A stretch of 51,268 nt of DNA from a virus (Duplodnaviria > Caudoviricetes), in the IMG/VR virus record IMGVR_UViG_3300045242_000078, positions 1 through 51,268 of that record, one strand, 5' to 3'. The position numbers and the translations under genes were made by a program. This document shows positions 1-47,303 of the stretch, piece after piece (position 1 is the first letter of the stretch; every line of letters starts with the position of its first letter). The notes beneath the pieces are model-generated. The model was not told the DNA's origin. It searched no databases and worked only from the letters and a program-made list of their open reading frames with translations.

Positions 1-33
1 CTGCCCAGAAGGGACGGAGTTGGGGCGGATAGC

Positions 34-288
34 TTACTGCTGGACATCGTTATTCTCCTTGCGATTTGATTCAAGTTTCACGGCAGGAATAAACGTGAAA
101 ACTGCCAGAATCGCCACGCACGACGCCCCGATCCAGGATGCATTATAGATCGAATACGCCGAGAGAGCGATTATCCCGAAAAGCGCCGTCAGGCTAAGAA
201 TTCGACTGGCAAGCATCTGGATTCCGACCTTTGCGTAGGCGAACATCACTTTCAGATCGGGCACGCCGATATCATTCATTTGGCTCAT
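34..288 (-). CDS. Small two-TM membrane protein (variant Y)
   Basis: Two hydrophobic helices; GGAGG SD before MSQMND; homolog at 41487-41741. Confidence 0.7.
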   Translation of the reverse strand: MSQMNDIGVPDLKVMFAYAKVGIQMLASRILSLTALFGIIALSAYSIYNASWIGASCVAILAVFTFIPAVKLESNRKENNDVQQ

Positions 289-517
289 CGTCTGCCTCCT
301 TGTTTTTGAAAAACTCACCGGCGCTATCGTCCTGCTGCACGTTCAACCGGATGGACTCAACCTTGAGAAAACGATCGAGCACCTTGCAACGCTCGGTAAG
401 TGAGTATTTCGGATTCTCGCCCGCCTTCGGCTTTTCCATAACCTCGGCCATCATTTCCTTGATTGCCCGCACTAGGACCGGATCAACGCCCTTAGACTTC
501 GCCTTCGGCTTGGTCAT
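272..517 (-). CDS. Hypothetical protein (variant Y)
   Basis: ATGA-coupled to upstream gene; conserved homolog at 41728-41970. Confidence 0.75.
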   Translation of the reverse strand: MTKPKAKSKGVDPVLVRAIKEMMAEVMEKPKAGENPKYSLTERCKVLDRFLKVESIRLNVQQDDSAGEFFKNKEADDEPNE

Positions 518-1728
518 TGGCCGATGCCTGCGCGGTTCGCGTCGTCTTGAGTGACTCGCGCAGGCCGGTTGTTGCCAGCTTCGAACGCGCCAATTCCAAC
601 CCGCGCGGCTGTCGCCGGAATCTGTTCACTACCCGAGTAGAGCATTCGCGCAATGAGGGACTTGAAAAGCGGACTGCGGTCAGCCATGAAGCCGACAAAC
701 TTTACAGGGTTCATCGTGAGCCAGCCAAGCCCTGCTGGGTTCTTGTTCGCGTCCATCAGCACCCTGCGCTCGGCCACGTTCAGAGCGTTCAGCAGCTTGG
801 ATTCCTCGGCGTTCAACGGTTGCACTTGAGGCACCGCCTTTGCGATTTCCTCTTTCAGCCCGCGTGCCAGCGTCTTCTGTGCTTCGATGTCAGCGCCCTT
901 GAGTTCTCCATACGACTTGTCGCCGAGGGAGCGGTAGGTGCCCTGTTTCAATTCCTGCGCGAGTTGGACTGGAATATCCTGCTTACCGACAAGAAGCGGG
1001 TGATTCAAGAATTCGTCCCATGCCTTCTGGATTGCGGCGATGTCCGACTGCGGTGTTACCTGTTTCTCGAACTTCGTCAGCGCATCCTGCAACGTATTGG
1101 CGACTTTGCTCTTGTCCACGGTAGCAGGCGAATTCTGAATCAACTGCTTGATTTGCTGATTCAGGCCCGATATTTTGTCCTGTAGTTTGTCCACGCCGCC
1201 GGGTGTGACGTTGATGCCTTCCTCAAGCATCGTGTCGATTGCCTTTGCCGCCTTCCCGGTTCGCAGCGTTTCGAGCGTCGGCTTGAGGGCGCTTTGCATC
1301 ATGCGCTTCCCCTCGGCTTGGAACGCGGGGGACGCGCCCTTGGCGACTTCGCCCCCTAGCAGCATGGGCAAGGTCTGCAAACCGACGTTCGCGGCGTAGC
1401 CAGCACCCGCGGCCACGTTGGGAGACATTCCGACCTTTGCCGCCGCGTCCGTCACCCTCCCCCCGCCTTCGTAGGCGGCCCTATCGAGCAGCTTCCCGGC
1501 GGTTTCCGTCCCCTTCATGATGCCGGTAATCGGCAAGCCCATGAGCCCGAATTTGCCAACGTTCGACATGGCTGACTCAGCGAAAGAACGCAACGCGGAC
1601 GGTTTCTCTTTCTTGGGTCCGGCGTTCTCTGGAGCCTCAAGTTGAGCAATCAGCGCCGGGTCCGTTACAAGCTTGCTGCCGGCTGAACCGAGTTCGGCCA
1701 GCAACGCGGGGTCGGTGACTTCTTTCAT
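514..1728 (-). CDS. Putative DNA ejection/internal virion protein 3 (variant Y)
   Basis: Follows the nozzle/ejection cluster; helical and Ala/Lys-rich; N-terminal VTDPAL(L/I)A(E/Q)L repeat; ATGA overlap at 1725-1728. Confidence 0.6.
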   Translation of the reverse strand: MKEVTDPALLAELGSAGSKLVTDPALIAQLEAPENAGPKKEKPSALRSFAESAMSNVGKFGLMGLPITGIMKGTETAGKLLDRAAYEGGGRVTDAAAKVGMSPNVAAGAGYAANVGLQTLPMLLGGEVAKGASPAFQAEGKRMMQSALKPTLETLRTGKAAKAIDTMLEEGINVTPGGVDKLQDKISGLNQQIKQLIQNSPATVDKSKVANTLQDALTKFEKQVTPQSDIAAIQKAWDEFLNHPLLVGKQDIPVQLAQELKQGTYRSLGDKSYGELKGADIEAQKTLARGLKEEIAKAVPQVQPLNAEESKLLNALNVAERRVLMDANKNPAGLGWLTMNPVKFVGFMADRSPLFKSLIARMLYSGSEQIPATAARVGIGAFEAGNNRPARVTQDDANRAGIGQ

Positions 1729-3269
1729 TTCTCGAACCACTTCCCGTCGCGCTTGACGTAATCCTTGCTGTTGATGGTTTTAGTTTCTTCGCCAGGCTTC
1801 GGGTCAGTCGCGCGCCGGTTCTTGTTGTCGCCGATTTCCTTCGTTCGTTTCAGTAAGTCCTCGCGCGCGTCGATCAAGCCGAGTTCGGCCTGATGCCCCT
1901 CAATGCGCAACTGCTGCATGGCGGCCTTGTAGACCGCAGGGGAATCAGCCGTGGCAAGCATTTTTTCTGCCTCCTGCAAGCTATGTACCGTGGGCGCCCC
2001 GCGTTGGATCAGCGCCCCGTAGGCGTTCTGGACGGCGCGGTTAGCAACAACCAGTTGCTTCTGCTCCGGGCTCCACGTGGATTCAGCGGCCTGTAGAAGC
2101 TGGTTTAGCGGCTTCCATCCGGTGCGCGCCACGGCATCTATGGCTTTTTCAGCCGGAGGGATGAACCGCTCCAGTTCCTTGTTTGCGATTGCAACGGACG
2201 CCGATTGCGTGCCAATGCGCTGCGCCTCTGCGTTGATCTCGCGCAGATGAATCTTGTTCGCCACCATATCGCTAGGGTCGCCCGTTCCCACAGTGGTCGC
2301 GGCAGAATACACGTCCCCGGAAAACTGCTTGCCGACGGTCTGAGCAAAGCGCGTTGGCAGCGGCGTGCCGGTCGAGACGATCTTCGCCCAGAAATCCACC
2401 TTCTTTTTGTACTCTGGGTCCGCGTTGTACTGCTCGCTGAGTCCGGCGGTCGCTCCGGGGCCTGCTTTTTCGTCCGCAGCCTTGCGATTGGCGGCGTTCT
2501 CGCGCGCCACCTGCTCCATTTCCTGGTCGTGGCGCTTCCGCTCGACAGCCGCATCGTGCCGCTCGCCGATCTGCGCCCGCGCCACCGTCAGCCTGTCGAT
2601 GGCCTTTTCTGTCGAACTGAGGATGGTTTCGCCTCTTTTTACCTTGTCCGACAGCGATTTCTGCTCGTGGCCAGCCGCTTTGTCGTCAAAATCGTACCTT
2701 TCCAAGATTAAATCGTGCTCCAGCGTCCACGCGGCGACGTTGTTCTTGTTTTTCCGGTCGTTTGCGGCCATGTCGCGCTGCAAAGCGGCGTTTCGTTCCT
2801 TCATCGAGGCCAAGTTCGTGTCGTAAATCTTGAGCGATTCGGCGACTTGGCGGTCATCTTCCTTCATGAAGCCGTTCATCGCCCCGGTAAGCGCCGTCAT
2901 CGTGTTGTTGTAGGGCGAGCGGGACGCCTTGCCGGCGAACATTGAGGCGACCAGCAGCATGCCGAAGGTCTTTTGAAGCTCCTGCGGGTCCAAAGCGGGC
3001 CGCTGGGAGGGTTCCATGCGTTCTTCCTTCTGGATTGGCTCGTCGGCGGCCTTGTGCGCTGCCTCTCTCAGCTTGTCCGAGGCCGGCTTTAGCTCCGCAG
3101 CGGCATCCCGCGCCCGCTGCGCACGGCTGGCCGAAAGGTCGGATTCCTGCTGCTGCAAGTCCGCAACGTCCCCCGCCTGCGCCGCGCTTTTGCCCTCCAG
3201 ATCGAAGATTCGGCGGTCAAACTGCTGCCCGAGGCCAGCAGAATCGACGGTTGCTTGGTCAAGAGCCAT
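1725..3269 (-). CDS. Putative DNA ejection/internal virion protein 2 (variant Y)
   Basis: Long helical/coiled-coil protein with a short hydrophobic segment; start MALDQ matches copy 2. Confidence 0.6.
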   Translation of the reverse strand: MALDQATVDSAGLGQQFDRRIFDLEGKSAAQAGDVADLQQQESDLSASRAQRARDAAAELKPASDKLREAAHKAADEPIQKEERMEPSQRPALDPQELQKTFGMLLVASMFAGKASRSPYNNTMTALTGAMNGFMKEDDRQVAESLKIYDTNLASMKERNAALQRDMAANDRKNKNNVAAWTLEHDLILERYDFDDKAAGHEQKSLSDKVKRGETILSSTEKAIDRLTVARAQIGERHDAAVERKRHDQEMEQVARENAANRKAADEKAGPGATAGLSEQYNADPEYKKKVDFWAKIVSTGTPLPTRFAQTVGKQFSGDVYSAATTVGTGDPSDMVANKIHLREINAEAQRIGTQSASVAIANKELERFIPPAEKAIDAVARTGWKPLNQLLQAAESTWSPEQKQLVVANRAVQNAYGALIQRGAPTVHSLQEAEKMLATADSPAVYKAAMQQLRIEGHQAELGLIDAREDLLKRTKEIGDNKNRRATDPKPGEETKTINSKDYVKRDGKWFEK

Positions 3270-3279
3270 GATTTTCGCC

Positions 3280-4848
3280 TCATTTCGTCGTGGCAACGCC
3301 GGATTGAGTGGCCGGCAGTCGGGCGCCGAGCGTGCCCAACATCGTCATGAAGTCGGTCAACGCCTTCGCCGCCGCTTGATCCCCTGCAATCTGCGCCTTG
3401 ATCGCCTCAACCTGGGTGTTGTCGGTCAGGTTCAGTTCGTTCAGGCCCTGGGTGAGCAGGTTTTGCCGCGCCTGCTCGGTCTGCGCGTCGGCTTGCTGGT
3501 TGATGTTGGCGATCGTGCCCTGCAACTGGCTGCTATCGGGGATGCCCGCTTTCGCGTAGAAATCGTTCGCCCGGTTGATCGCCGCCTGCTTGGTCTGCTG
3601 GATGTTGAAGGCGTCGGCGGCGTTGATCGTCCCGGCCTTGTACTGGGCGAGCAACTGATTGGCGATATCGCGCTGCGGTCCGCCTAGTGACTTTATCTCG
3701 TCGAAGTACTTATTCGCGTTGCTGCTCGATGTCGCCAAACCGGCCAGCCCGCCGATGGCCGGGGCGAGCTTCAGGAGGTCGCTCGCATTGCTTGGCAAGC
3801 CGGGAACGCCTGAACTTGGCGCCCCAGGAGCGCCGCTGATCGGGTTTCCGAATAAATCCGTGTTCGTATCGGTGCCCGGCGCAACGTCGGATAGGGGCGT
3901 GTCCGAAGGCGCCTGATGCACGGTATTGAACGATCCGCCTTGCTGGTTGATGAAGTCCTGAGCGGTGCCGAGTTCGGCCGGCTGGTTTGCGCCGCTACCG
4001 ACCAGAGATTTAGCCGCAGCCGCGGTCGATGCGCCGGCGGCGGTCGTCTGGAGTGGCGACAGACCGGACCCGCCGGCGGTAGGAGTAGCAGGCGCCGTCG
4101 GCGCAGTCGGGGCGGTTCCGGCTGGAGGACCTGGCGCGGTCGGCGCCGGCGATGCAGCCGGAGGCGTGGGCGCCGTTTCAGGCAGCACGGCGCCAGGCGC
4201 GGCGGCTTCCGGCAATGCCGAGGGCAAGCCCTGCGCCGAAGCGTTGGCAGCGGTAGGGAGCCCGGCGTCGCTGGCCGCACCGGGAGCAGCTTGCGCCGCG
4301 AGCCCGCCAGCGGCACCACCGACTGCGCCCGCGGTCGCAGCGTCAAGGCCCCAATTCGCGGTATTGCCTGCGATCAACGATCCAAGCGCATCGCCACCAC
4401 CCGCCCCTACCGCATTGGCAGCCTCCAGCGTGCCGGGAGCAGCACCGAAACCTCCCGCTGCGCCAGCCGCACCGCCAAGTGCGCCCGCCGCCGCCGGCAG
4501 GAACGCCGAGCCCGCCGCCAGCCCGCCGATGATGCCGCCGACTCCTGGGCCGAACGGGTTAGCGTTGCGCGCCTGATTCGCTGAAAGCTGTTGCTGCCAC
4601 TCTGGCGTGACCTTTCCAGCGGCATCCGTGACCATGACCGGTTGACCGTCGCGCCCCGGAGCAAACGCAGGCTGCCCAGGAGGCGGAGCGTTTTGCGAAA
4701 GCGCTCCCGTAACGTCGTTCTTGTACCAGATTTGAGTGTCATCACCACCAGGAATGAACTTGTTGTCTGTGACCATCACCCATCTGCCAACAGGAGCGGC
4801 TTGCTGCACCCCGCCCGCCGTGGCCGATTGTTGAGGTAAGGTAGCCAT
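3280..4848 (-). CDS. Putative DNA ejection/pilot protein 1
   Basis: Gly/Ala-rich hydrophobic stretches, Pro/Ala linker and Gln-rich C-terminus typical of pilot proteins; AGGA SD. Confidence 0.55.
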   Translation of the reverse strand: MATLPQQSATAGGVQQAAPVGRWVMVTDNKFIPGGDDTQIWYKNDVTGALSQNAPPPGQPAFAPGRDGQPVMVTDAAGKVTPEWQQQLSANQARNANPFGPGVGGIIGGLAAGSAFLPAAAGALGGAAGAAGGFGAAPGTLEAANAVGAGGGDALGSLIAGNTANWGLDAATAGAVGGAAGGLAAQAAPGAASDAGLPTAANASAQGLPSALPEAAAPGAVLPETAPTPPAASPAPTAPGPPAGTAPTAPTAPATPTAGGSGLSPLQTTAAGASTAAAAKSLVGSGANQPAELGTAQDFINQQGGSFNTVHQAPSDTPLSDVAPGTDTNTDLFGNPISGAPGAPSSGVPGLPSNASDLLKLAPAIGGLAGLATSSSNANKYFDEIKSLGGPQRDIANQLLAQYKAGTINAADAFNIQQTKQAAINRANDFYAKAGIPDSSQLQGTIANINQQADAQTEQARQNLLTQGLNELNLTDNTQVEAIKAQIAGDQAAAKALTDFMTMLGTLGARLPATQSGVATTK

Positions 4849-4857
4849 GATCTGTCC

Positions 4858-5196
4858 TTAAAGTCCGAGCGCCTGCTCGATTCTCTGATGCGCGAACGTG
4901 TGATTCTGCTGCCAGTCCTCGGCCTGCGCGCTGTCTTTCGGATCAAGCGTATCGAGGTCAACCGGTAGCGGCAGCCCGAGCGCCGTTGCAATCGAAGCGT
5001 GCACCTCGGCGTGCAAGTTCAGCCAGTCCTCGGTAATGCCGCCCGTCGTGAATAGCGGGTAATGCGCGCTCACCACCTGCAACTGCTCCATGAGGGCGCC
5101 ATAAATCGTTTCGTGCGCGAGGTCATTCAAATCCAAGAACTGCACCAGAGCACCCGCGTCCTGCATGTCGAAATCTTGCAAACTGCTCAAGTTCAT
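4858..5196 (-). CDS. Hypothetical virion-module protein (His-rich, acidic)
   Basis: ORF packed between structural genes; GC3 codon bias. Confidence 0.65.
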   Translation of the reverse strand: MNLSSLQDFDMQDAGALVQFLDLNDLAHETIYGALMEQLQVVSAHYPLFTTGGITEDWLNLHAEVHASIATALGLPLPVDLDTLDPKDSAQAEDWQQNHTFAHQRIEQALGL

Positions 5197-5198
5197 GG

Positions 5199-5831
5199 TC
5201 AGTAGCGATACCACGCTCTGAGTTGGTCCCCGGTCTGCGGCGTTGACGCAGCCACAAACGTAATCGTCAACCCGGCCAGGTTGTAATCTATGCCGGCAAG
5301 GTACGATGTCCCGTCCTTGTGCGTTAGCAGCAGGCTCGCCGCAGGCGTCGGCGCGTGGGCGAGCGTGAATACTTTGTTTCCTACCGTGCCCGCGCCGTTG
5401 ATGGTGCCAACTGGAGTTTCGTTATCGGCAAACTGCGGCCCGCCCGTCGCTTGTCCGACCAGCTTGTATTGTGTTCCGTCGTACACCACCGACACCACCG
5501 CGCCCGAGCGGATCGTGCCCGCGGCAATCGCGCTTCCGTCGAAGTTCGTAATCGGCACCGTGCCAGTACCATAGGCATTGAGCGTGGAGGCCCCGGTGTT
5601 GGTCGTCGCCGCGAGGAATTGAATCGCAAGCCCCGCCGCGAGCACCGCCGTCACGCCGACAGGCAGGCTCACGATGTACACGTTCGCAGCGCCGGTATCG
5701 ACCAGATAATTGCCGAACGTATTCGTGCTCGCAATCGCCGCTTTGAGCGCCGCGAAATTCGCATCCAGTTGAACGAGGCTCCAGGGTGCCGAGAGGTTCG
5801 CAAAGGTGGTGATCGTTACTGGTGCTGGCAT
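5199..5831 (-). CDS. Short tail fibre/needle-like structural protein
   Basis: QLDANF N-terminal motif, ATTNTGASTLN beta motif, DYxLAG..ITF..P..GD C-terminal motif. Confidence 0.6.
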   Translation of the reverse strand: MPAPVTITTFANLSAPWSLVQLDANFAALKAAIASTNTFGNYLVDTGAANVYIVSLPVGVTAVLAAGLAIQFLAATTNTGASTLNAYGTGTVPITNFDGSAIAAGTIRSGAVVSVVYDGTQYKLVGQATGGPQFADNETPVGTINGAGTVGNKVFTLAHAPTPAASLLLTHKDGTSYLAGIDYNLAGLTITFVAASTPQTGDQLRAWYRY

Positions 5832-5841
5832 GGTGAATTCT

Positions 5842-7371
5842 CTACTGTGCGCGAGTCGCCCAATCCGTCGAGCGGCTGTATTGCGTCAAGAACCCTTCGA
5901 CGATGTACGCGGGAGAACTGGACGTCATCGTGAATCCAAGATATCGACCCTTGAACTCCGCGTCGCCCTGGAAAATGTTGAAGCCAGAAAATATCCAGTC
6001 CCCGGTGACCAGCGCCGCATTGATCCACTCGCCCAACTGCCCGGCGGCGTTGAACCATTGCCCGGTGTTCGTTGCCGAGAGCATCACTGGCACGGTGCCG
6101 AAGTCGGAATCGAGCGACAAGCTCAACCAGAAAGGATGTGCAACCGTGGTGACTTCGACCCCGGCCTTTTGGCCTTCCTTCATGCGCGTGGGCTCTTTCA
6201 TTGGCCAGAGCGCCGTCTGAATCTTGGTGTCAATCGGCGCCGTGGTATCTGAAAAGAGCTTGTAGATGTTCGTGCCGTCCGTGCCAAAGAGCGCCGTTTT
6301 CTCCGCCTGGAAGCCGCCCGCAATGAGGGTGAGCGCGTCGCCTTGGCTGGCGAGGAACCACTTGTCATTGAAAAGAATCGCTAGAAGCGCCCGCTCGCCG
6401 CGCGCGGCATCGTTATAGCGAAACAGAAACGCGAGACACAAAATCTGGTAGATGTTCGCCGGCCCCCCTGAAACTAAGTCCTGATAAACCAAGTCCCGAA
6501 ATACGCCGTCCAGCTTGTCTGAGATTTTCTGCGGCGTCGCGCCGTTGAGCACATAGAAGCCGCTATCGGTGACGAACGCTACAAGCCGGTAGTAGGCGAA
6601 AATCGACATGCGCTGCGTCGATCCGATCAGGGCGGAAATGTTCGTGTTGGAAAAAAGCGTCGGCGTCGGCGTGCCGGTGCCCAAGCGCACGTCCGACACG
6701 ATGTTGAACGACGTGTTCCCCGCGATGTAGATAAAATTATTCGCCGTGAAAAGCGCCGTGATGTTCGAATGCAGCGTTTCGTCGGTGACGATGAAGGTGC
6801 CGCCCGAGCTCGCCGTGGTGAAGTCCTGATAGCTGTTCGGACCTGAGAACGTGATCGTGCGCAGGAACCCGACCCACACGCGGCCCGCGTAGGTGGCGAT
6901 GGTCGCGCCGAACGCAGGCGCCCCGGTGATTGAGGCGAGCACCACAAGCCCGCCGATAGGGTCCCAACTCCAGTATCCGTTCGCAGCAACGATCAGCGCG
7001 CGCTCGTTTTTCCACTGCGCGATTGAGACTTGCCCGACGAACGTGCCGCCCGCCGCTATCACGGTCACGGCGAACGTGGCGAGGTTCAACGCGTGCCCGC
7101 CGCCGCCCACGTTGAAGCACAATTGAAAATCCACGTTGCCGATATTCGCGTACTTCCAATAGTTGATGGTCACCGCCGGAATCGTCGCAACCAGCGTCGG
7201 CGCAGGAATGCAGCGCAGGTTCGCATACCCGACCGGCATCACGTTTTCAAGCCAGGAGAATTCTTTCTCGTCAATCGCCGTGCGCTGCGCCTGCGTGTTG
7301 ATGCCGGCGAAGTCCTTTACGCTCAGGTCTTGATCTAGCGTTTCAGCAGCGAGTGCGCGCGCGTTCACCAT
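5842..7371 (-). CDS. Tail nozzle/tubular protein B (P22 gp10-like position)
   Basis: 509-aa beta-rich protein after the adaptor; F.GIN..WLEN.MP N-terminus. Confidence 0.65.
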   Translation of the reverse strand: MVNARALAAETLDQDLSVKDFAGINTQAQRTAIDEKEFSWLENVMPVGYANLRCIPAPTLVATIPAVTINYWKYANIGNVDFQLCFNVGGGGHALNLATFAVTVIAAGGTFVGQVSIAQWKNERALIVAANGYWSWDPIGGLVVLASITGAPAFGATIATYAGRVWVGFLRTITFSGPNSYQDFTTASSGGTFIVTDETLHSNITALFTANNFIYIAGNTSFNIVSDVRLGTGTPTPTLFSNTNISALIGSTQRMSIFAYYRLVAFVTDSGFYVLNGATPQKISDKLDGVFRDLVYQDLVSGGPANIYQILCLAFLFRYNDAARGERALLAILFNDKWFLASQGDALTLIAGGFQAEKTALFGTDGTNIYKLFSDTTAPIDTKIQTALWPMKEPTRMKEGQKAGVEVTTVAHPFWLSLSLDSDFGTVPVMLSATNTGQWFNAAGQLGEWINAALVTGDWIFSGFNIFQGDAEFKGRYLGFTMTSSSPAYIVEGFLTQYSRSTDWATRAQ

Positions 7372-7372
7372 G

Positions 7373-8224
7373 TCACGAAACCGCGTAAGGGTGTTTCAGG
7401 CGACGCGTGTACGCCGAGTTGATCGCCTTGATGACTTCATTGTTGTAGCGTTGGTAAAACATCTCGGCTTCGCTCCACTTCTGCGCCTTGATCTTCGCCA
7501 AGTGCGCCGCGAAATACTGCACCGGGTCTTGCATCACAATCGGAATCACTTCCAGACTCGTGTTATCCACGAGCGGCGGCGGCTGCTGCACCGAATCGAA
7601 GTCCGCCTTGTACGCCTGATCCGGGATGCGCGCGATGTACGTTTGCGTGTAGCCGTAGATGGAAAAGACAACGGGCCTGCCGGGGGTTCCGACAAAACTG
7701 CGCGCGAGCGCGTTGAAGGTGGACCAGTCCCGGTAGGCAAGCACGATGCGCGAATTGCCCGAGTACACCGTGAGGTTTACGCAGTCAATCGTGCTCGAAT
7801 TGATGAAGTAGGCGGTTGCCGCGGAGCCGGTTCCGGGCCCGCCGAAACTAACCGCGGGCGTGCTCGCGTACAGCGTCCCCGGATTCGTCACCACGATGTC
7901 CGTCACCGCGCCCCCCGTGACTGTGGCAACGGCAGTCGCGGTTACACCGCCGGTCACTCCCGGTCCGGCGATGGTGACGGCGGGCGCGGTGACGTAGCCG
8001 GTACCGGGCGATGTGATCTGGAAGCCCGTCACGGAACCGAATGGGTAAACCTCAACGCCAGTCGATAGGTAGAGCGTCTGGAGCAGACGGTTGCAGCCGG
8101 TATCGCGGACTACGCGCGTGCGGGCGGCGTTTACGTAGTCGCCGATCTCCGCGACGCTCGTAAACTGTCCAGCTGCGTCGTGCAGGAGCCTTTGGACTTG
8201 GATTACGTACTGGTTTAGCGCCAT
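7373..8224 (-). CDS. Head-tail adaptor with inserted PGTGYxTAPxVT domain
   Basis: Helical N/C termini (YVNAARTRV; YFAAHLAKIK) plus a Gly/Thr repeat insert. Confidence 0.6.
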   Translation of the reverse strand: MALNQYVIQVQRLLHDAAGQFTSVAEIGDYVNAARTRVVRDTGCNRLLQTLYLSTGVEVYPFGSVTGFQITSPGTGYVTAPAVTIAGPGVTGGVTATAVATVTGGAVTDIVVTNPGTLYASTPAVSFGGPGTGSAATAYFINSSTIDCVNLTVYSGNSRIVLAYRDWSTFNALARSFVGTPGRPVVFSIYGYTQTYIARIPDQAYKADFDSVQQPPPLVDNTSLEVIPIVMQDPVQYFAAHLAKIKAQKWSEAEMFYQRYNNEVIKAINSAYTRRLKHPYAVS

Positions 8225-8236
8225 TGCGCGGGCTTG

Positions 8237-8650
8237 TTAGCCCGCTTGCGCTTGCCGAGCGGCTGCGAGCTTCTGAAGTGGACCGACCCTGCCGTTAGCT
8301 ACTCCCGGCGCGGGGTAGGCAGTCATCCCCGCGCCGGTTTCGTCATCACCAGCCGGGACGGAGGGGCCGGAGATTAGTTGATGCGCGCGCGCCTCTTTTT
8401 CTGACATATGGAAGGAGAATTGCCCGAGCCGTTCCAGCGCCTTCGGCATGTCGTCCAGCGTGAAGGCGAGCCCGAGCCGGCGGATGACGCGCGTCTTGTC
8501 CTCTTCGCCAAAGCCCAAGCAGAGTTCGGCGGTTTCGACCAGCATCTCTTCGACACCGCCCGCCGGAATCGTGAAGTCCTCGCCGTTGTAGCGGTCGCGG
8601 AAAGGTTTGTCGCCGTGGTTCGCAACGAACACGGTTTGCTGTCGGATCAT
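8237..8650 (-). CDS. Hypothetical virion-module protein
   Basis: ATGA-coupled start; conserved in copy 2 with synonymous changes. Confidence 0.7.
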   Translation of the reverse strand: MIRQQTVFVANHGDKPFRDRYNGEDFTIPAGGVEEMLVETAELCLGFGEEDKTRVIRRLGLAFTLDDMPKALERLGQFSFHMSEKEARAHQLISGPSVPAGDDETGAGMTAYPAPGVANGRVGPLQKLAAARQAQAG

Positions 8651-8913
8651 GATGCGAGTTCCCAATCGGTAGCGAGCAAATCAGTTTGGGAACACAGCCA
8701 CGGAACGATGTCCCCGGTTGCCGTTTTCATATCCACGTGAGCGTGATAGGTGACTTCTGTTCCTACCGGATAGATGCCGAGCAACGGAGGGCGGTTGACT
8801 TCAAACTTGCTGCCAGGAACAAGGAACAGGAACATGTTTTTTCCGTTCCACCCGGAACGCGCCACGCGAGCGCCGTCTTGCATCTGCTTCACCGCCCACC
8901 CGATGCCGTTCAT
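8647..8913 (-). CDS. DUF2829 / Tad2-like anti-defence nucleotide-sponge family protein
   Basis: A..G.RVAR.GWNGK.MFLFL and VPWL.SQTDLLA.DW signature motifs. Confidence 0.8.
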   Translation of the reverse strand: MNGIGWAVKQMQDGARVARSGWNGKNMFLFLVPGSKFEVNRPPLLGIYPVGTEVTYHAHVDMKTATGDIVPWLCSQTDLLATDWELAS

Positions 8914-8941
8914 AGTCTGCCCCTTCGATCCACGTGGAACC

Positions 8942-10051
8942 TTACAGCGGCAGCAGGTACGACAGGTCAGACGCCGCGCCGCCGACGGTCTGCGCCACGA
9001 TCGTCACAGCGGCGGAAATCGTGCCGTTAGAATCGCTCGCATATGCAATGCCGGTCGGAATGATTTGGTGCAGCCCGCCATCCAGGAAGGTGACGCCGCC
9101 GCCCACCGTCGTATTAAACGCGGTGTAGGCAGGACGAGGAACGAAAAGCCCCGTGGTGATCGCCGGATTCGTGTTGATGGATTGCGCCGTCGCAAGTGCG
9201 CCAATGGCGAATCCGATGTTGCCGGCACCGAGGTTCGATGCCGCTGTCTGCGCAACGCCCGTCGTGATCGTGAAGCACATGATCGCGGTTGCAGCCGGGG
9301 TGCCAGTAGTGGGCGCAAAGGTGAACGTCGGCACGGAAGTCATGCCCGCGCCGTTGTTCGCCTGCGTGAGCGCCGTATAGCCGCCGGAGCCTGCCAAGGT
9401 CGCATTGACCGTCAGCACGCCGCCCGTGCCCGTTGTGTCGCCCGGCGCGCGCGTGACTGTGACCGGAGGCGCTACCGTGTAGCCTGCGCCCTGGTTCGTC
9501 ACCGTGACCGCGTTGATCGCGCCGGCGGACACCGTGCAGAACGCCGTCGCCGGGACGCCGCCAAGCGGAGGCGGTCCGATCTGGAGCACGGGCGCGCGCG
9601 TGTAGCCAGTACCGCCCGCCGTAATGGCGATGGTCGTATTGATCGCACCGCCCACGATCGCGTTCACCGTTGCGACGATCGATCCGCCGGCGGCGGACAT
9701 CGTAACGGTCGGGCTCGCCGCCGTGCCGTTCCCCGTGCCTGCCGGATAGATGCCGTTCGTTAGGCCGGAACCCGCTGTAGTCAGAGACGCCCCGACCATC
9801 GTCCCGGTCAGGTTCGCAAGCCGCCAGTTCGCCCCGTCGCTCGATACGATCGTGCCCGCCGACTGCGCAGGGGTCGTCAGCACGCGCCAAACTTGCGTCG
9901 CCGCGTCCCACCATTGGAGGAACGTGTAGAGGCCCGGAAGCACCTGATACTGCCCCGAGGGGACCATGAACAACTGCCCCGAGGTCAGGTTGACGGTTAC
10001 AGGCGTGTGGCCTTGGTCGTAGGCGCCGGCCCCCATGCGATTAATTGCCAT
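8942..10051 (-). CDS. Capsid decoration/minor structural protein with G(T/A)GYT.AP repeats
   Basis: Follows capsid/HNH; Gly/Thr/Ala-rich beta repeats; GGAG SD. Confidence 0.6.
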   Translation of the reverse strand: MAINRMGAGAYDQGHTPVTVNLTSGQLFMVPSGQYQVLPGLYTFLQWWDAATQVWRVLTTPAQSAGTIVSSDGANWRLANLTGTMVGASLTTAGSGLTNGIYPAGTGNGTAASPTVTMSAAGGSIVATVNAIVGGAINTTIAITAGGTGYTRAPVLQIGPPPLGGVPATAFCTVSAGAINAVTVTNQGAGYTVAPPVTVTRAPGDTTGTGGVLTVNATLAGSGGYTALTQANNGAGMTSVPTFTFAPTTGTPAATAIMCFTITTGVAQTAASNLGAGNIGFAIGALATAQSINTNPAITTGLFVPRPAYTAFNTTVGGGVTFLDGGLHQIIPTGIAYASDSNGTISAAVTIVAQTVGGAASDLSYLLPL

Positions 10052-10060: not shown

Positions 10061-10546
10061 CTAGATGTGAGCCCAGTTACGGCCTTTTTTCACGTACCAA
10101 ACGGCAGTGATTGAGACGCCGAACTTTTCTGCCATAGACTTCAACGTAAGATTGCTGTCCCTGATGAAATGCACATCGGCTTCGGTCAGTTTCGTCTTGT
10201 TGTTGTCTGGACCGCGGCGACCGATACTGCCGTACATTCCGTGTTTCTCACGCTTCGCGCCACGCCCGCGCATTTCACGATCTCGCGTGTTGTCTTGCGT
10301 AGTGCCGAGATAAAGGTGATGCGGGTTCACGCACGCTTCAACGTCGCAACGATGAAGCACCCACTTCTGAGGCGGAATTGGTCCGTTGAAAAGCGTGTAG
10401 GAAAGACGGTGCGTAGACAAATCCTTCTGCGTCTCGGTATCCCAGATACGACCGTATCCGGTGTCGTTCATTGCGCCCATCCATATCCAGCAACCGCTTT
10501 CGGTTACTGGTTCAACAAGCGCGAGGAATTGGTCTTTCGAGATCAT
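10061..10546 (-). CDS. HNH homing endonuclease with C-terminal HTH
   Basis: GCWIWMG..GYG..HRLSY..VLHRCD...CVNPHHL..GT..DN motif; KLTEADV HTH; ATGA overlap with capsid stop. Confidence 0.9.
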   Translation of the reverse strand: MISKDQFLALVEPVTESGCWIWMGAMNDTGYGRIWDTETQKDLSTHRLSYTLFNGPIPPQKWVLHRCDVEACVNPHHLYLGTTQDNTRDREMRGRGAKREKHGMYGSIGRRGPDNNKTKLTEADVHFIRDSNLTLKSMAEKFGVSITAVWYVKKGRNWAHI

Positions 10547-11637
10547 AATGTTAACGAATTGAACCCAGATATGCGGGTTGATGCTTTTGGTTTTACATTT
10601 GCTAACTCCAAAATGCAAACCAATGCACCCACATATCCCAATTGGAAGTTGCTAATTGTACTTTCAAAACCTGTGAACGCGAAGCTTCCCATTACATGCA
10701 CATACAGATTGATATAGTTAGAATTCTGCAAATACACGATGCCTTCGGGACAGTACTGGTCAGCGTAGATCGGAACGCCGCACACCATGAGCGCATCAAA
10801 CCCGGAGCGCGGCCCGTCGCCTGATCCGTCGAAGCCGGTGCCCGGCGTGATGACGTACTGCTCTTGGCCCTGATAATCCTGCGCGAGCAGCGCCCAGGTG
10901 CCAAAGCCGCACACGCCGAAACTCGGTTTCTCGCCGCCGTTCTTTGCCGTGCCAGCGATGTACTGCAAGAGTGCTTGCCGCGTCGGGTTGCCGGTTGCGG
11001 CGTACACCTTCGACTGCCACCACACGTTTTGCGTGCGGTTGATGTTGCCGTAGGTCACCATGTTGGTGCCGTCGTCAATCGCGCCGGGAAAGCCGATCAG
11101 CGCCTGCAAGTTCGTCGTGTTGTTGAATAGCGCGGTTGAAAACACGTCCATGACTACGTTCCCGGCGTCGTTCATCTTCGCCTCGATCTTCGGAATGATC
11201 GCGTGATCGAGTTGCAGGATGCCTTCCATCCCGAGGAACGGAATAGGCACGATGAAGAGTTTCAGATTCCCCTCGAAGAGGAACGCGCCCTGCAAGTCGG
11301 ACGGCTGATTGAACGCGCCGTCGTAGCCTGACCATTGACCGGTGACAAACGGGGCACCCTGCACCGGGACACTGATGGAACTGACGCCACCGTAAGCGGG
11401 CTGCGCTCCGGCAAGTAGGGACGCCATCGTGGGCGAGTTGTTGTAGATTTGGACTACGAGGCGGGGAATGAACGCCCTTCTCGTAATTGCGGTTAACTCC
11501 CCTCCAACGCCTACCCCTGGGACGATTCCTGTACCAAATACGACGGTTTGCATTAAACCCACGCGCATCATGTATTGCGTGATTGCGAAATACGCCGGTT
11601 CAAACAGCCACGTCAAAAAGTTGAGGAAGCGATTCAT
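10543..11637 (-). CDS. Major capsid protein (with ~31-aa N-terminal extension)
   Basis: Position after scaffold; 364 aa; TAAGGAG SD before ATG 11637; motifs RRAFIP.LVVQIY, YGNINR...WW, GVPIY.D.YCP. Confidence 0.85.
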   Translation of the reverse strand: MNRFLNFLTWLFEPAYFAITQYMMRVGLMQTVVFGTGIVPGVGVGGELTAITRRAFIPRLVVQIYNNSPTMASLLAGAQPAYGGVSSISVPVQGAPFVTGQWSGYDGAFNQPSDLQGAFLFEGNLKLFIVPIPFLGMEGILQLDHAIIPKIEAKMNDAGNVVMDVFSTALFNNTTNLQALIGFPGAIDDGTNMVTYGNINRTQNVWWQSKVYAATGNPTRQALLQYIAGTAKNGGEKPSFGVCGFGTWALLAQDYQGQEQYVITPGTGFDGSGDGPRSGFDALMVCGVPIYADQYCPEGIVYLQNSNYINLYVHVMGSFAFTGFESTISNFQLGYVGALVCILELANVKPKASTRISGFNSLTL

Positions 11638-11647
11638 GCGAGACTCC

Positions 11648-12268
11648 TTATCCCAAGGCAAAGCCGGCCGCAACTTCATGCGCGGTGAAAAGAGAACTGG
11701 GAATCGAAACGCCGTATTGTTGCAGCAGAGTCGATGCCCAAGCTAGTTTGTCCTCAACTCTCTGCCCGTAGGGTTGGGATTTGCTCCACAGTTCTAGATT
11801 GGAAATTGAATTGTCGGCGCGGTCGCCGTTCTTGTGGTGAACGGTTTCGTGAGGAAGCAGCGGCCTTCCCAGAATCTTCGCCATGATGACGCGATGTTCC
11901 TTGACGATCTTCCCGTCGATGGCTTTTCGTTTGTAGCCGTTCGAATCCAAGGTGAATGGTTCTGCCCTTCTGAAAATAGTTCTGCATGCATAAGAACAGA
12001 AATTTGAGTCCTTGAACATCTTGAATTGGGAACTGTAGCGCGTGTACAACTTGCCGCACACTTTGCAGTTTTTGCTTACAGATTCCTGGCCGTTCCTGCA
12101 TGCCCTAGAGCAATACCTTGCGGGTTCTGCGCGGTGCGCCGGAACAGAAAATTCAGATTTGCAGCCGAGACATATTTTTTTGACCGCGGTCGATGGCGTG
12201 CCACGCGGTTTGCGCTTCATCTTTTCGAGCGCCGCAGCGCGCCGCTCCGGGTCTTTTGGCATTGTCAT
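11648..12268 (-). CDS. HNH endonuclease with N-terminal CxxC/CSxxC Zn repeats
   Basis: C..C..F....YCSRAC repeats; EHR..M..LGR.L...[11 protein letters not shown]...NLEL. Confidence 0.9.
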
Positions 12269-41741: not shown

Positions 41742-41970
41742 TGTCTTCCTCCTTCTGCTTGAAAAACTCTCCGGCACTGTCGTCTTGCTGCACGTTCAGA
41801 CGGATGGACTCGATCTTAATCATGCGGTCAATGATCTTGCAGCGCTCGCTCAAAGAGTACGCCGGCTGCTCGCCCTCCTTCGGTTTCGCCATCACCTCTT
41901 CCATCAAATCCTTGATCGCCTTGACGAGCTTCGGATCCACGCCCTTCGACTTCGCCTTCGGCTTGGTCAT
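41728..41970 (-). CDS. Hypothetical protein (variant X)
   Basis: Homolog of 272-517. Confidence 0.75.
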   Translation of the reverse strand: MTKPKAKSKGVDPKLVKAIKDLMEEVMAKPKEGEQPAYSLSERCKIIDRMIKIESIRLNVQQDDSAGEFFKQKEEDNEHE

Positions 41971-43187
41971 TGGCCTATGCCTGCCTTGTCCGCGTCGCGC
42001 TGCGTGACGCTTGCGGGCCGGTTGTTGCCAGCTTCGAACGCGCCAATGCCTACACGCGCGGCGGTAGCGGGAATCTGTTCGCTGCCCGAGTAGAGCATGC
42101 GTGCAATGAGTGACTTGAAAAGCGGACTGCGGTCAGCCATGAAACCGACGAACTTAGCCGGGTTCGTGGTCAGCCAGCCTAATCCCGCCGGGTTCTTGTT
42201 CGCGTCCATCAGCACCCTGCGCTCGGCGACGTTCAGCGCATTCAGCAGCTTGGATTCCTCGGCGTTCAACGGCTGCACTTGAGGCACCGCCTTTGCGATT
42301 TCCTCTTTGAGCCCGCGTGCCAATGTCTTCTGCGCCTCAATGTCAGCGCCTTTCAGTTCGCCATACGACTTGTCGCCGAGGGAGCGGTAGGTGCCCTGTT
42401 TCAATTCTTGCGCGAGATTCACCGGAATATCCTGCTTGCCGACAAGAAGGGGATGGTTCAGGAATTCGTCCCATGCCTTCTGGATTGCGGCGACGTCCGA
42501 CTGCGGCGTTACCTGCTTTTCAAACTTCGTCAGCGCATCCTGCAACGTGTTGGCGACTTTGCTCTTGTCCACGGTAGCAGGCGAATTCTGAATCAACTGC
42601 TTGATCTGCTGATTCAGGCCGGAGATTTTGTCTTGGAGTTTGTCCACGCCGCCGGGGGTGACGTTGATGCCTTCCTCAAGCATTGTGTCGATTGCCTTTC
42701 CCGCCTTCCCGGTTCGCAGCGTTTCGAGCGTAGGCTTGAGGGCGCTTTGCATCATGCGCTTACCCTCGGCTTGGAACGCGAGGGACGCGCCCTTGGCGAC
42801 TTCTCCCCCTAGCAGCATGGGCAAGGTCTGCAAACCGACGTTCGCGGCGTAGCCCGCCCCTGCGGCCACCTTCGGGGACATTCCGACCTTTGCCGCCGCG
42901 TCTGTCACCCGCCCCCCGCCTTCGTAGGCGGCCCTATCGAGCAGCTTCCCGGCGGTTTCCGTCCCCTTCATGATGCCGGTAATCGGCAAACCCATCAGCC
43001 CGAATTTGCCAACGTTCGACAGAGCGGACTCTGCCGTAGATCGGAGCGCGGACGGCGGTTCCTTCTTGGCTGGAGGTGCAGGCGCGGCAGGCTTCGCGTC
43101 AAGGGTGAATCCCGGCGGAGGCGGCGGTACAGCCTCGTCCAGCGTGAACCCAGGCGGCAGCGACGCTACGGGGTCATCGGTTGCCAT
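41967..43187 (-). CDS. Ejection protein 3 (variant X), PPGFTLD N-terminal repeats
   Basis: Near-identical to 514-1728 except the first ~45 aa. Confidence 0.65.
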   Translation of the reverse strand: MATDDPVASLPPGFTLDEAVPPPPPGFTLDAKPAAPAPPAKKEPPSALRSTAESALSNVGKFGLMGLPITGIMKGTETAGKLLDRAAYEGGGRVTDAAAKVGMSPKVAAGAGYAANVGLQTLPMLLGGEVAKGASLAFQAEGKRMMQSALKPTLETLRTGKAGKAIDTMLEEGINVTPGGVDKLQDKISGLNQQIKQLIQNSPATVDKSKVANTLQDALTKFEKQVTPQSDVAAIQKAWDEFLNHPLLVGKQDIPVNLAQELKQGTYRSLGDKSYGELKGADIEAQKTLARGLKEEIAKAVPQVQPLNAEESKLLNALNVAERRVLMDANKNPAGLGWLTTNPAKFVGFMADRSPLFKSLIARMLYSGSEQIPATAARVGIGAFEAGNNRPASVTQRDADKAGIGQ

Positions 43188-44740
43188 TTGCCGTCCTTGA
43201 ACTGTATTTTCTTGCCGTCAGGCCCGGTTGCGGTCGGCATGGTAGGTGATGCGGGTGCGCCGTCAGCGGGTACGCTCGGCCGAGCGGAACCGATGCGCTG
43301 CTTGTCGATTGCGCGCTCAAACGTCTTGATACGCTCCTTGCCCTCATCGTGCATCGCCTCGCCCACGGCATCGAACGAAGCTGGCGTCATGTTGATGTTG
43401 GCCCACTTGCGCGCTTCCTCCTGCGCGCCTTGGTGCAGTTGCGCGATGGACGCCTGCCCGCCAGATAGGATACGAGCCGACTCCTGCCCAGTCGCTGACA
43501 GGTAGTAGAACAAGCTCGAATACGCCGGATTCCCGGTCCATTTTTCCTCGCCGCGGGCGATTGCGTTCAGGAGCGGGGACAGGTCGGTTGACCCGAGCTT
43601 CTTCATTTCCTCCTTGGTTTTCTTGATGTTGAAATCCAGTTGGTCAACGGCTTGCCGGGTTGCCCCGAGCATGGCGGTTAGCTGCGTTACGCTGCGCTGC
43701 CCGGCGACGTAGCCGATTTTCCGGTTCGCCAGTTCCTCCCCTGCTTGCTGGTCGGTCATGCCGGTCTGAGATTTGATCTGCGAAATGGCGGCGACGCGAA
43801 GCTGCTCGCGCTTGTGCGAAACGTCCATGCCGTAGCCGGGGAGCACTTGATTGATGGGCATCCCTGCCGCCACCTGTGCGCCGCCGCTGGCAAGCTCCGA
43901 TTCGCTCATGATGGGGCCGGTTTTCTTGTCCGCCTGATCTTTGCGGAAATCCATCATTTCGCGGAAATGGCTGTCTGCCTGCGCCCGAGCCTTGGCAGCT
44001 TCCTCTTTCTTGTCCTCGCGCGCCTGCTGGCGGTCGCCAAGCTGCGCCCGCACCGTAATCGCCCTGTCCAGCGCCTTTTCGGTCGATTGGACAATGCTTT
44101 CTCCACGTTTTACCTTATCCGACAGAGATTTCTGCTCGTGCCCGGCCGCTTTGTCGTCAAAATCGTACCTTTCGAGGATTAAATCATGCTCCAGCGTCCA
44201 CGCGGCGACGTTGTTCTTGTTTTTCCGGTCGTTCGCGGCCATGTCGCGCTGCAAAGCGGCGTTGCGCTCCTTCATTGAGGCAAGGTTCGTGTCGTAAATC
44301 TTCAAGGATTCGGCGACTTGGCGATCATCCTCCTTCATGAAGCCGTTCATCGCCCCGGTAAGCGCCGTCATCGTGTTGTTGTAGGGCGAGCGGGACGCCT
44401 TTCCGGCGAACATGGAGGCTACCAGCAGCATGCCGAAGGTCTTTTGAAGCTCCTGCGGGTCCAAAGCGGGCCGCTGGAATGGCTCCATGCGCTCTTCCTT
44501 CTGGATTGGCTCGTCCGCGGCCTTGTGCGCCGCCTCTTTCAGCTTGTCGGCGGACGGCTTTAGCTCCGCAGCGGCATCCCGCGCCCGCTGTGCACGGCTG
44601 GCCGAAAGGTCGGACTCCTGCTGCTGGAGGTCGGCCACGTCCCCCGTCTGCCCCGCGCTTTTTCCCTCCAGATCGAAGATTCGACGGTCAAATTGCTGCC
44701 CGAGGCCAGCAGAATCGACGGTTGCTTGGTCAAGAGCCAT
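43166..44740 (-). CDS. Ejection protein 2 (variant X)
   Basis: N-terminal ~230 aa shared with 1725-3269; C-terminal half different. Confidence 0.65.
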   Translation of the reverse strand: MALDQATVDSAGLGQQFDRRIFDLEGKSAGQTGDVADLQQQESDLSASRAQRARDAAAELKPSADKLKEAAHKAADEPIQKEERMEPFQRPALDPQELQKTFGMLLVASMFAGKASRSPYNNTMTALTGAMNGFMKEDDRQVAESLKIYDTNLASMKERNAALQRDMAANDRKNKNNVAAWTLEHDLILERYDFDDKAAGHEQKSLSDKVKRGESIVQSTEKALDRAITVRAQLGDRQQAREDKKEEAAKARAQADSHFREMMDFRKDQADKKTGPIMSESELASGGAQVAAGMPINQVLPGYGMDVSHKREQLRVAAISQIKSQTGMTDQQAGEELANRKIGYVAGQRSVTQLTAMLGATRQAVDQLDFNIKKTKEEMKKLGSTDLSPLLNAIARGEEKWTGNPAYSSLFYYLSATGQESARILSGGQASIAQLHQGAQEEARKWANINMTPASFDAVGEAMHDEGKERIKTFERAIDKQRIGSARPSVPADGAPASPTMPTATGPDGKKIQFKDGKWQPMTP

Positions 44741-44750
44741 GATTTTCGCC

Positions 44751-46310: not shown

Positions 46311-46319
46311 GATCTGTCC

Positions 46320-46658: not shown

Positions 46659-46660
46659 GG

Positions 46661-47293: not shown

Positions 47294-47303
47294 GGTGAAT
47301 TCT

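Follow-up and report, generated by a model that had tools for sequence, protein, structure and literature searches.

A tail and an N-module that covary across one gene junction of short-tailed phages, and their probable docking role between gp20-like and gp16-like proteins

The window, i.e. the whole stretch of 51,268 nucleotides that we analysed, corresponds to about 1.24 units of a 41.5-kb phage genome, and its overlapping ends are non-identical. When the window was compared with itself by blastn, positions 2557-9806 aligned to 44028-51268 (96.4% identity over 7253 columns) and positions 141-1616 aligned to 41597-43069 (86.6% over 1477 columns), and between these aligned flanks no nucleotide alignment was found for 1617-2556 versus 43070-44027. 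This unalignable segment covers the C-terminal half of an upstream protein and the first ~42 residues of a downstream protein; a swap at ~1600-2560 versus ~43060-44030 had been proposed in an earlier sequence-only reading, whose coordinates are right to within about 20 bases. All genes of this region are carried by the minus strand, and the two versions of the region (variants Y and X) contain the following features.

1617..2556, minus strand: variant Y of the swapped segment; it encodes the C-terminal half of the gp20-like upstream protein and the start (~40 codons) of the gp16-like downstream protein
43070..44027, minus strand: variant X of the swapped segment, from nucleotide and protein comparisons
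1725..3269, minus strand: upstream protein, variant Y, an ORF with its stop at 1725-1727 that gives 514 aa when counted from the Met it has in common with X
43166..44740, minus strand: upstream protein, variant X, 524 aa
1728..1793, minus strand: Y tail (putative docking tail, predicted beta mini-module), last 22 codons; the same tail occurs in locus L003
43169..43234, minus strand: X tail, last 22 codons; its class is common to locus L149 and gene 20 of phage SEN22
514..1728, minus strand: downstream protein, variant Y, with a length of 404 aa if started at the ATG at 1728 and of 408 aa if started at the GTG at 1740
41967..43187, minus strand: downstream protein, variant X, 406 aa, with a 22-nt overlap between its start and the upstream gene
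1624..1728, minus strand: Y N-module, the 35 codons that begin with the ATG at 1728, with a twofold repeat; the homologue P0001 starts at this Met
43083..43187, minus strand: X N-module, first 35 codons, with a twofold repeat
3280..4848, minus strand: first of three large proteins, 522 aa, Ala/Gly/Pro-rich, outside the cassette (context only)
44751-46310, minus strand: second copy of the first large protein (context only)

The upstream proteins of X and Y have 233 of 276 aligned N-terminal residues in common and are unrelated past about residue 235-240, and the downstream proteins, which differ at their starts, are identical at 352 of 366 residues from residue ~42 onward. In variant Y, the ATG at 1728 overlaps the upstream stop codon as ATGA. 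Apart from this segment the duplicated 9.8 kb is 96% identical, and no second swapped segment is present over its five further structural genes (the portal and capsid genes are single-copy in the window, hence outside the X/Y comparison). X and Y are not an isogenic pair with a single clean double crossover, because the divergence of the two flanks differs (96.4% versus 86.6%).

Both C-ends quoted in the sequence-only reading are present as written, each with the same four-residue turn behind a proline-rich stretch. The AlphaFold2 model of the Y upstream protein is all-helical, with helices up to 63 residues long and a moderate mean pLDDT (68.7), and it predicts three short strands at residues 496-513 (pLDDT 80-87) preceded by a low-confidence linker (486-495), consistent with the hairpin-like C-end that had been suggested. 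The duplicated motifs reported at the N-ends hold up as well: matched to themselves without gaps, the N-ends score 54 (X) and 44 (Y), as compared to a 99th percentile of 34 in shuffles, and an alignment of the X class of N-modules (L149, P0005/8/10/34/62/68/99/113 and SEN22 gp16) has five invariant positions in each of the two repeats.

Searches with the proteins themselves gave few names. Nothing usable was returned by Pfam or PHROGs for any of the three large proteins (the Pfam version used gives no family even for P22 gp16 itself), and a wide structure search with VIA-align retrieved generic helical hairpins only (best Z 8.1). For the upstream protein, the nearest named ESM Atlas cluster is PF16928 (0.86, a lead only); PF16928 (Inj_translocase) had no match in either upstream variant by hmmscan at E up to 0.1, whereas P22 gp20 itself scores 405 bits against it. 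The upstream protein had 0 matches in a PDB sequence search, and its model matched only uncharacterised phage proteins in BFVD. By hhalign, its alignment reached a probability of 1.2% against the P22-like gp20 alignment, and its last 110 residues without the tail reached 12% (E 0.0024), both comparisons landing on one and the same helix pair.

The downstream protein has at least 1265 homologues, none of them named, and its AlphaFold2 model has a conserved helical core (pLDDT about 90). Its BFVD matches include entries named 'Injection protein' and 'DNA transfer protein' and proteins with LT_GEWL domains, and the nearest named ESM Atlas cluster is PF26808 (0.92, 144 shared features, again only a lead). 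Its profile had 0 matches in a PDB sequence search, its model matched nothing in the PDB at E <= 0.001 (Foldseek), and no tblastn match was found among 50,697 cultured-phage records; hhalign gave a probability of 1.7% for the core alignment against P22-like gp16, and 0.2% for the alignment against P22 gp16 alone.

The link to ejection proteins comes from the two ends. Salmonella phage SEN22 carries the variant-X pair of the window where its annotated genes 20 and 16 meet: for the X tail, the score against the tail of SEN22 gene 20 is 61 (threshold 33), and for the X N-module, the score against SEN22 gp16 is 49 (threshold 40.6). The name 'ejection protein' used in the sequence-only reading thus finds no backing in Pfam or PHROGs and gains support through the comparison with P22-like phages, since the X pair adjoins across the SEN22 gene 20/gene 16 junction. 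Other classes are shared as well; the pair class of Sf6, L and CUS-3 matches locus L048, and a Proteus phage class matches L028, L092 and L151.

To see how tails and N-modules assort, we surveyed 114 non-redundant junctions from 171 sources with unbiased pairwise scores, comparing the last 22 upstream residues (tail), the first 35 downstream residues (N-module) and both protein bodies. Single-linkage clustering chained via low-complexity linkers (largest cluster 79), and pairwise counts and average linkage were used instead. The N-module is similar as well in 122 (74%) of the 165 tail-similar pairs (background 5.0%), and their own upstream body is similar in only 32 (19%; background 12.6%). 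Similarity in the region after the module is found in 34% (108/321) of N-similar pairs, against a background of 22.4%. A locus and its nearest tail neighbour have a common N class in 84 of 99 cases, and the majority N cluster holds 80 of the 91 members of multi-member tail clusters. Under unsupervised clustering, the adjusted Rand index is 0.458 for tail versus N-module (reached by 0 of 2000 permutations), as compared to 0.018 for tail versus own body and 0.035 for N-module versus following region. Concordance is asymmetric, with the tail similar in just 122 of 321 N-similar pairs, which may reflect weak detectability of 22-residue tails or real promiscuity.

Individual loci show the same pattern. 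One upstream body occurs with different tails in L036/L042, L054, L035, L044 and L156, each with an N-module matching its tail, and L050 versus L082 is a further example of a body/tail exchange with matching N-modules. In the L021/L144 pair the polarity is reversed, with the proline-rich peptide on the tail and two hairpin-like repeats on the N-module. Net charge is positive for the tail in 82 of 114 loci and negative for the N-module in 98 of 114, while neighbouring regions are neutral; this charge pattern is not universal, as P22-like tails are mostly uncharged.

The junction between the first and second large proteins served as a control. In the same 71 loci, 12 of 14 tail-similar pairs at the control junction are similar in their own body, whereas at the studied junction the own body is similar in 13 of 56 tail-similar pairs and the next N-module in 39 of 56; a cassette was sought at the control junction in these loci and was not found. 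The proposed chaining of ejection proteins by such cassettes would apply to this one junction and not to the neighbouring one.

We also compared gene 20 and gene 16 in 12 cultured P22-like phages (66 pairs). Similarity of the tail is found in 17 pairs and of the N-module in 16, with 16 pairs similar in both, and 11 of the 66 pairs have similar gp20 bodies with different tails. Phage L, for example, has a gp20 body of P22 type, but its tail and its gp16 are both of Sf6 type. Tail class and N-module class thus covary across genomes independently of both protein bodies, the covariation is restricted to this junction, and it is present in P22-like phages. Covariation of tail and repeat type had been predicted in the sequence-only reading, and both surveys are strongly positive for it; free assortment was seen in neither. 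Inheritance as a unit, also proposed there, holds for the last ~20-30 and first ~35-45 residues and for nothing more: the ~950 nt exchanged in the window are far above this minimal pair, and the 250-residue C-terminal half swapped there assorts freely from the tail in other phages.

We think it likely that the two ends form a cognate docking pair that joins the gp20-like tube protein to the gp16-like membrane protein. The upstream and downstream proteins would be counterparts of P22 gp20, which forms the periplasm-crossing tube, and of P22 gp16, by which the DNA channel is completed at the inner membrane. The pair would consist of the final ~20-30 residues of the upstream protein and the initial ~35-45 residues of the downstream protein, each half separated from its protein body by a flexible linker, and the tail would bind the N-module directly, after ejection. 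The pair would thereby fasten the membrane protein to the far end of the tube, and it may also act inside the virion. As the halves are encoded back to back over an overlapping stop/start, recombination that imports a new tail would bring its partner along, and only recombinants gaining both halves would survive. The outcome would be dozens of interchangeable, mutually matched pairs, including a beta tail with a beta-beta-alpha module, a helix with a helix and, as in X and Y of the window, a short peptide in two copies with a small hairpin that contains tryptophan. The twofold repeat might let one downstream protein hold two tails, which would fit the 12 gp20 : 6 gp16 modelled for P22.

Results on P22 bear on this reading. 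According to the available part of one study (PMC10461980), P22 hybrids with only the Sf6 gene 16 or only the Sf6 gene 20 form particles that are non-infectious, triple P22/Sf6 swaps are functional, and amber-truncated gp20 that lacks its last 33 residues yields virions that do not function; its authors conclude that a gp16-gp20 interaction is needed during delivery. In the available part of an in situ cryo-EM preprint (bioRxiv 10.64898/2026.09.03.749273), the gp20 C-terminal domain lies against the cytoplasmic membrane and is proposed as a template for gp16, the density beneath the gp20 dodecamer is best fitted by six gp16, gp20 residues 436-471 are not resolved, and low-confidence AlphaFold3 runs wrap the extreme gp20 C-terminus around gp20's own plinth instead of binding it to gp16. 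Our own complex prediction for the X pair (residues 41-130 of the upstream C-terminal 130 with downstream residues 1-60, from small alignments) scored 0.05 (mark 0.32), with low confidence in the partner fold, a result that favours neither binding nor its absence. Natural fusions of the upstream and downstream proteins were sought and none was found; four proteins of 715-2040 aa turned out to start with an ordinary N-module and to carry a C-terminal extension, and this is weak evidence. A programmed frameshift or read-through fusion was rejected, because the stop-to-start offsets (-1, -4, -11, -16, -22, 0, +2, +3) occupy all three frames.

Linkage alone is one rival reading. If the junction were simply hypervariable and recombination-prone, the tail and the N-module could act separately (e.g. 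in membrane or periplasmic contacts) and travel together by adjacency. Tight linkage is expected even without interaction, because the halves are 0-30 nt apart and overlap by 1 to 28 nt in many loci, and few neutral breakpoints are expected in so short a target. The argument for docking depends on the position of breakpoints, which are common immediately beyond the pair and missing from its interior. They occur often within about 25-60 codons to each side: counted as summed k-1, which is inflated by over-splitting, there are 71 tail clusters within body clusters and 49 N clusters within following-region clusters, as compared to 9 apparent splits of a tail cluster by N cluster, none of which is clear (they are both-side sub-variants, N-terminal extensions or one clustering error). 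Locus L003 has a 173-nt insertion exactly at the junction, and DNA rearrangement is therefore possible there. Sub-variants change together on both sides, the neighbouring junction behaves as an ordinary gene boundary in the same loci, and the polarity-reversed L021/L144 pair and the failure of the P22/Sf6 single-gene hybrids, as far as the available part of that study goes, likewise speak against adjacency as the whole explanation, which we regard as improbable.

Alternatively, both ends might bind one and the same variable third partner, for example a further virion protein, the portal barrel or scaffold during packaging, or a host envelope protein. Short terminal peptides could be loading signals, and P22 ejection proteins are described, in the available part of one report, as affecting each other's incorporation and sitting near the portal barrel (PMC4992974). 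Against this, the rest of the duplicated 9.8 kb in the window has no second swapped segment over its five further structural genes, and across loci the pair assorts independently of the protein bodies next to it. The same pair classes are found in enterobacterial Lederbergvirus, in an aphid-symbiont phage and in uncultured phages with Massilia prophage relatives, and this spread over very different hosts disfavours a host-specific partner. We judge a common third partner quite unlikely. A chimeric join of two co-occurring strains is plausible for a 51,268-bp linear IMG/VR contig of 1.24 genome units with non-identical ends, but as the origin of the variants themselves it is very improbable, as both cassettes are intact open genes and, because each has relatives elsewhere (Y in L003 and P0001, X in L149 and SEN22), the cassette finding is independent of both copies sharing one molecule.

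A stronger version of the docking reading is tentative, and we hold it to be rather less than an even prospect: the pairs could be a true orthogonal compatibility code with at least 20-40 exclusive types and a 2:1 stoichiometry set by the twofold repeat, in which tail and N-module type would decide which membrane protein completes which periplasmic tube. Because the membrane protein can diffuse between co-infecting particles, diversity could be maintained by selection against mixed, non-functional channels and perhaps also against decoys that resident prophages or satellites produce. Orthogonal pairs, if that is what they are, would make a natural toolbox of small heterodimerising tags and would serve as a practical guide to constructing functional chimeric phages.

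Even the newest in situ structures of P22 do not show how a short-tailed phage couples its periplasmic tube to the inner-membrane-opening protein; according to the available part of the preprint, neither the very C-terminus of gp20 nor the N-terminus of gp16 is visible in them (bioRxiv 10.64898/2026.09.03.749273). A matched pair at these two ends offers an explanation of why single-gene P22/Sf6 hybrids die and whole-set swaps live, and of the lethality of the 33-residue removal from gp20. It also represents an unusual form of phage mosaicism, with exchange boundaries inside both genes that avoid the gene boundary. In the literature that we searched, a scope outside which lies Casjens & Thuman-Commike 2011 (reportedly the main analysis of mosaicism in these P22 genes), we found no description of a matched cassette spanning the junction.

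Among known systems, gp20/gp16 of Lederbergvirus (P22, Sf6, L, CUS-3, SEN22 and others) is the closest in layout: the genes are likewise adjacent, with overlapping stop and start, in a late virion module, and the uncultured loci have tail and N-module classes in common with them. P22-type gp20, like the upstream protein of the window, is a long helical protein whose C-terminal half is variable, and the gp20 architecture in the available part of the preprint (a C-terminal domain and a separate extreme C-terminal segment) is comparable to the upstream model. The protein bodies of the window, by contrast, show no significant sequence or profile similarity to P22 gp20/gp16, and the downstream protein is shorter (404-408 aa versus 609-740 aa in P22-type gp16). 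P22-type gp20 is described as tolerating 'apparently random' intragenic mosaic modules, and the available part of that description contains no tail that travels with gene 16.

In T7, according to the available part of the report, an N-terminal 'molecular tape' of gp16 binds the C-terminal domain of gp15 (PMC8954989). That tape is a ~70-residue internal stretch (157-228) behind a transglycosylase domain and not a terminal mini-module, the available text describes no interchangeable classes, and the T7 proteins have no sequence relation to those of the window. The docking domains of polyketide and non-ribosomal peptide synthases serve an enzyme assembly line rather than a virion or membrane channel and are unrelated in sequence, so that the analogy is one of logic only. 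There, too, the DNA around a gene junction encodes short elements at the C-terminus of one polypeptide and the N-terminus of the next; these belong to several structurally different, orthogonal classes and determine the order of the subunits.

The window is an entire IMG/VR virus record of 51,268 bases. According to a self-comparison, the opening 9.8 kb and the closing 9.8 kb represent one stretch in two versions at an offset of ~41.46 kb, so the record holds ~1.24 phage genome units. It reflects either a genuine, heterogeneous concatemer or tandem, or two strains occurring together that were joined during assembly (1-9806 and 41597-51268 being the variant ends). The two versions match at 96.4% between 2557-9806 and 44028-51268, and at 86.6% between 141-1616 and 41597-43069. 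Between these aligned flanks, 1617-2556 (variant Y) and 43070-44027 (variant X) show no alignment whatever in the same comparison. Because the flanks differ in divergence, X and Y are not an isogenic pair. The minus strand carries every late gene in the window, and the landmarks are:

17618-19495, minus strand, terminase (PHROGs)
15070-16743, minus strand, portal-like protein (PHROGs)
10543-11679, minus strand, major head protein (PHROGs)
39126-40907, protein of 593 aa without a PHROG hit, placed after the ejection genes at the position of the P22 tailspike

The unalignable segment spans the C-terminal half of an upstream protein (514 aa in Y, 524 aa in X) and the N-terminal ~42 residues of the downstream protein encoded next. 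The sequence-only reading had described this swapped segment with its C-ends and repeated N-end motifs, and all are present as it wrote; the N-end repeats score 54 and 44, above the shuffles' 99th percentile of 34. The first of the three large proteins also has a short motif twice near its N-terminus (4600-4848 and 46060-46310), and a long Ala/Gly/Pro-rich middle. The gene preceding it varies between loci, and in some loci its end may resemble a tail-fibre chaperone domain.

None of the three large proteins has a match in Pfam, PHROGs or any PDB sequence. At least 1265 metagenome proteins are homologues of the downstream protein, none of them carries a functional name, and no relative of the downstream protein was found among cultured-phage records. 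Among 120 of the homologues listed, a ~320-residue core is 50-65% identical throughout, and the first 30-45 residues fall into many unrelated types (diverse twice-repeated short peptides, or small strand-strand-helix or helical modules). Three longer homologues (P0121-P0123, 716-733 aa) keep an ordinary N-module and are extended at the C-terminus, by 250-300 residues. AF2 models the helical core of the downstream protein with confidence (pLDDT ~90, residues 140-340) and leaves the N-module poorly determined. Uncharacterised phage proteins make up the best BFVD matches of this model; lytic-transglycosylase domains are present in several, and some bear the labels 'Injection protein', 'DNA transfer protein' or Mx8 virion protein. 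The nearest named ESM Atlas clusters, taken as leads only, are P22 gp16 for the downstream protein (PF26808, 0.92) and P22 gp20 for the upstream protein (PF16928, 0.86). As profile comparisons do not show homology of the protein bodies to gp20 or gp16, we call the proteins gp20-like and gp16-like by position, architecture and shared end-modules, not as members of those Pfam families.

Using a core alignment of the downstream protein, we fetched the best 80 of 177 viral, 9 genomic and the best 80 of 273 metagenomic loci, giving 171 sources with the window's two copies included. A usable junction was lacking in 29 (22 whose fetched stretch contained no upstream ORF, 4 with an upstream ORF below 190 aa, 3 with a stop-to-start gap above 30 nt), and one locus (L027) was left out since its upstream frame resembled out-of-frame junk. 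The remaining 141 junctions were reduced to 114 by merging those in which each end was at least 85% identical. Two Massilia genomes and an Oxalobacteraceae MAG contain prophage copies of the family (L083, L084), a hint that the phage group of the window may infect betaproteobacteria.

By eye, every N-module type in this listing is accompanied by its own type of upstream C-tail. We scored the tail (last 22 residues), the N-module (first 35 residues) and the upstream body (residues -130 to -45), calling two regions similar when their local-alignment score exceeded the 99.9th percentile of shuffles. Among 165 tail-similar locus pairs, N-modules are also similar in 122 (74%; background 5.0%) and upstream bodies in only 32 (19%; background 12.6%); among 321 N-similar pairs, the region after the module is similar in only 108 (34%; background 22.4%). 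The nearest neighbour by tail has the same N class in 84 of 99 cases. Average-linkage clustering yields adjusted Rand indices of 0.458 between tail and N-module (reached by 0 of 2000 permutations), 0.018 between tail and own body, and 0.035 between N-module and following region. The majority N cluster holds 80 of the 91 members of multi-member tail clusters. Nine tail clusters span two N clusters, and these cases fall into three groups: sub-variants that change on both sides together, an extra N-terminal extension ahead of the motif (L003 and L005), and one clustering error; no clear mismatched pair was found among the 114 junctions. One upstream body type carries at least five different tails (L036/L042, L054, L035, L044, L156) and another carries two (L050, L082), and the next protein's N-module is always the one matching the tail.

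From these comparisons the tail and the N-module probably form a cognate docking pair. The docking code proposed from the sequence holds up in the covariation across genomes that was suggested as its check, with the functional unit being the short tail plus the N-module and not the whole swapped half-gene.

Given a spacing of 0-30 nt and frequent overlap between the two halves, linkage alone, i.e. joint travel through adjacency on the DNA, is a serious candidate, though we consider it improbable. The junction of the first and second proteins behaves as an ordinary gene end: across 71 loci, 12 of 14 tail-similar pairs there share their own body, whereas at the gp20-like/gp16-like junction of the same loci 13 of 56 do so and 39 of 56 share the next N-module. 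The code, originally drawn along the ejection proteins, is therefore kept at this latter junction only. Exchange boundaries are frequent within a few tens of codons on both sides; k-1 sums, inflated by over-splitting, are 71 for tail clusters within body clusters and 49 for N clusters within following-region clusters, versus 9 unclear N splits within tail clusters. DNA can evidently be rearranged at the junction itself: compared with variant Y, a close relative (L003:5829-6003) has 173 nt inserted precisely at the junction, after the upstream stop and before the repeated motif, which give the downstream protein an in-frame 55-residue extension resembling a second small strand-plus-helix module. 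Also against linkage are a pair of reversed polarity (L021/L144; L021:5600-5900), with a proline-rich peptide on the tail and two hairpin-like repeats on the N-module; the charges, net positive in 82 of 114 tails and net negative in 98 of 114 N-modules with neutral adjoining regions; and twofold internal repeats, a feature specific to the N-module (39 of 114; tails 5 of 114, control segments 3 of 114). We note that the reversed pair mirrors the arrangement of variant X, and that an extension similar to that of L003 occurs in L005/L102. A shared third partner bound by both ends seems less likely still than linkage.

Following the ESM Atlas and BFVD leads, we examined P22 together with 11 further P22-like phages, hand-picked to be diverse among 40 rows listed of the 151 records that matched. 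As in the window, gene 20 and gene 16 overlap stop-to-start. P22, SPN9CC, epsilon34 and APSE-2 have one common tail with one gp16 N-module; Sf6, CUS-3, L, ST160 and S9-5 have another, of the same class as a viral locus (L048); the third tail class, also seen in L028/L092/L151, is that of a Proteus phage and IME10. Salmonella phage SEN22 carries the variant X pair of the window (scores 61 and 49, thresholds 33 and 40.6). Of 66 phage pairs, 17 are tail-similar, 16 N-similar and 16 both, and 11 have similar gp20 bodies with different tails. The gp20 of phage L is P22-type until ~30 residues from its end and then has an Sf6-type tail, and its gp16 is also Sf6-type. The gp16 of S9-5 and IME10 carries a lytic-transglycosylase domain. 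The Proteus phage gp16 (L178:3993-4200) and locus L091, otherwise different, have in common, at the start of the downstream protein, a conserved ~45-residue segment that follows or replaces the docking motif.

In the literature searched, no account of a matched cassette across this gene junction came up. Leavitt, Casjens and colleagues (PMC10461980) report that P22 with Sf6 gene 16 alone or Sf6 gene 20 alone makes non-infectious particles and that a swap of all three ejection genes is functional; their conclusion is that the two proteins gp16 and gp20 'must interact during DNA delivery'. In the same paper, virions are non-functional when an amber mutation takes away the final 33 or 66 residues of gp20, and gp20 is described as tolerating 'apparently random exchange' of intragenic modules. 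A preprint by Yu, Liu, Molineux and colleagues (bioRxiv 10.64898/2026.09.03.749273) presents gp20 as a dodecameric periplasmic channel whose C-terminal domain meets the cytoplasmic membrane and, as they propose, serves as a template for gp16, with residues 436-471 not resolved and density best fitted by six gp16. By our own reckoning, this 12:6 ratio would fit two tails held by one twice-repeated N-module. Low-confidence AlphaFold3 runs in the same preprint put the gp20 end around its own plinth, a modelled placement that counts mildly against tail-to-gp16 contact. In T7, the N-terminal 'molecular tape' of gp16 binds the gp15 C-terminal domain (PMC8954989). A docking pair as proposed here would extend a known kind of contact (gp20-gp16, gp15-gp16) to a modular system with many matched types, directly testable in P22.
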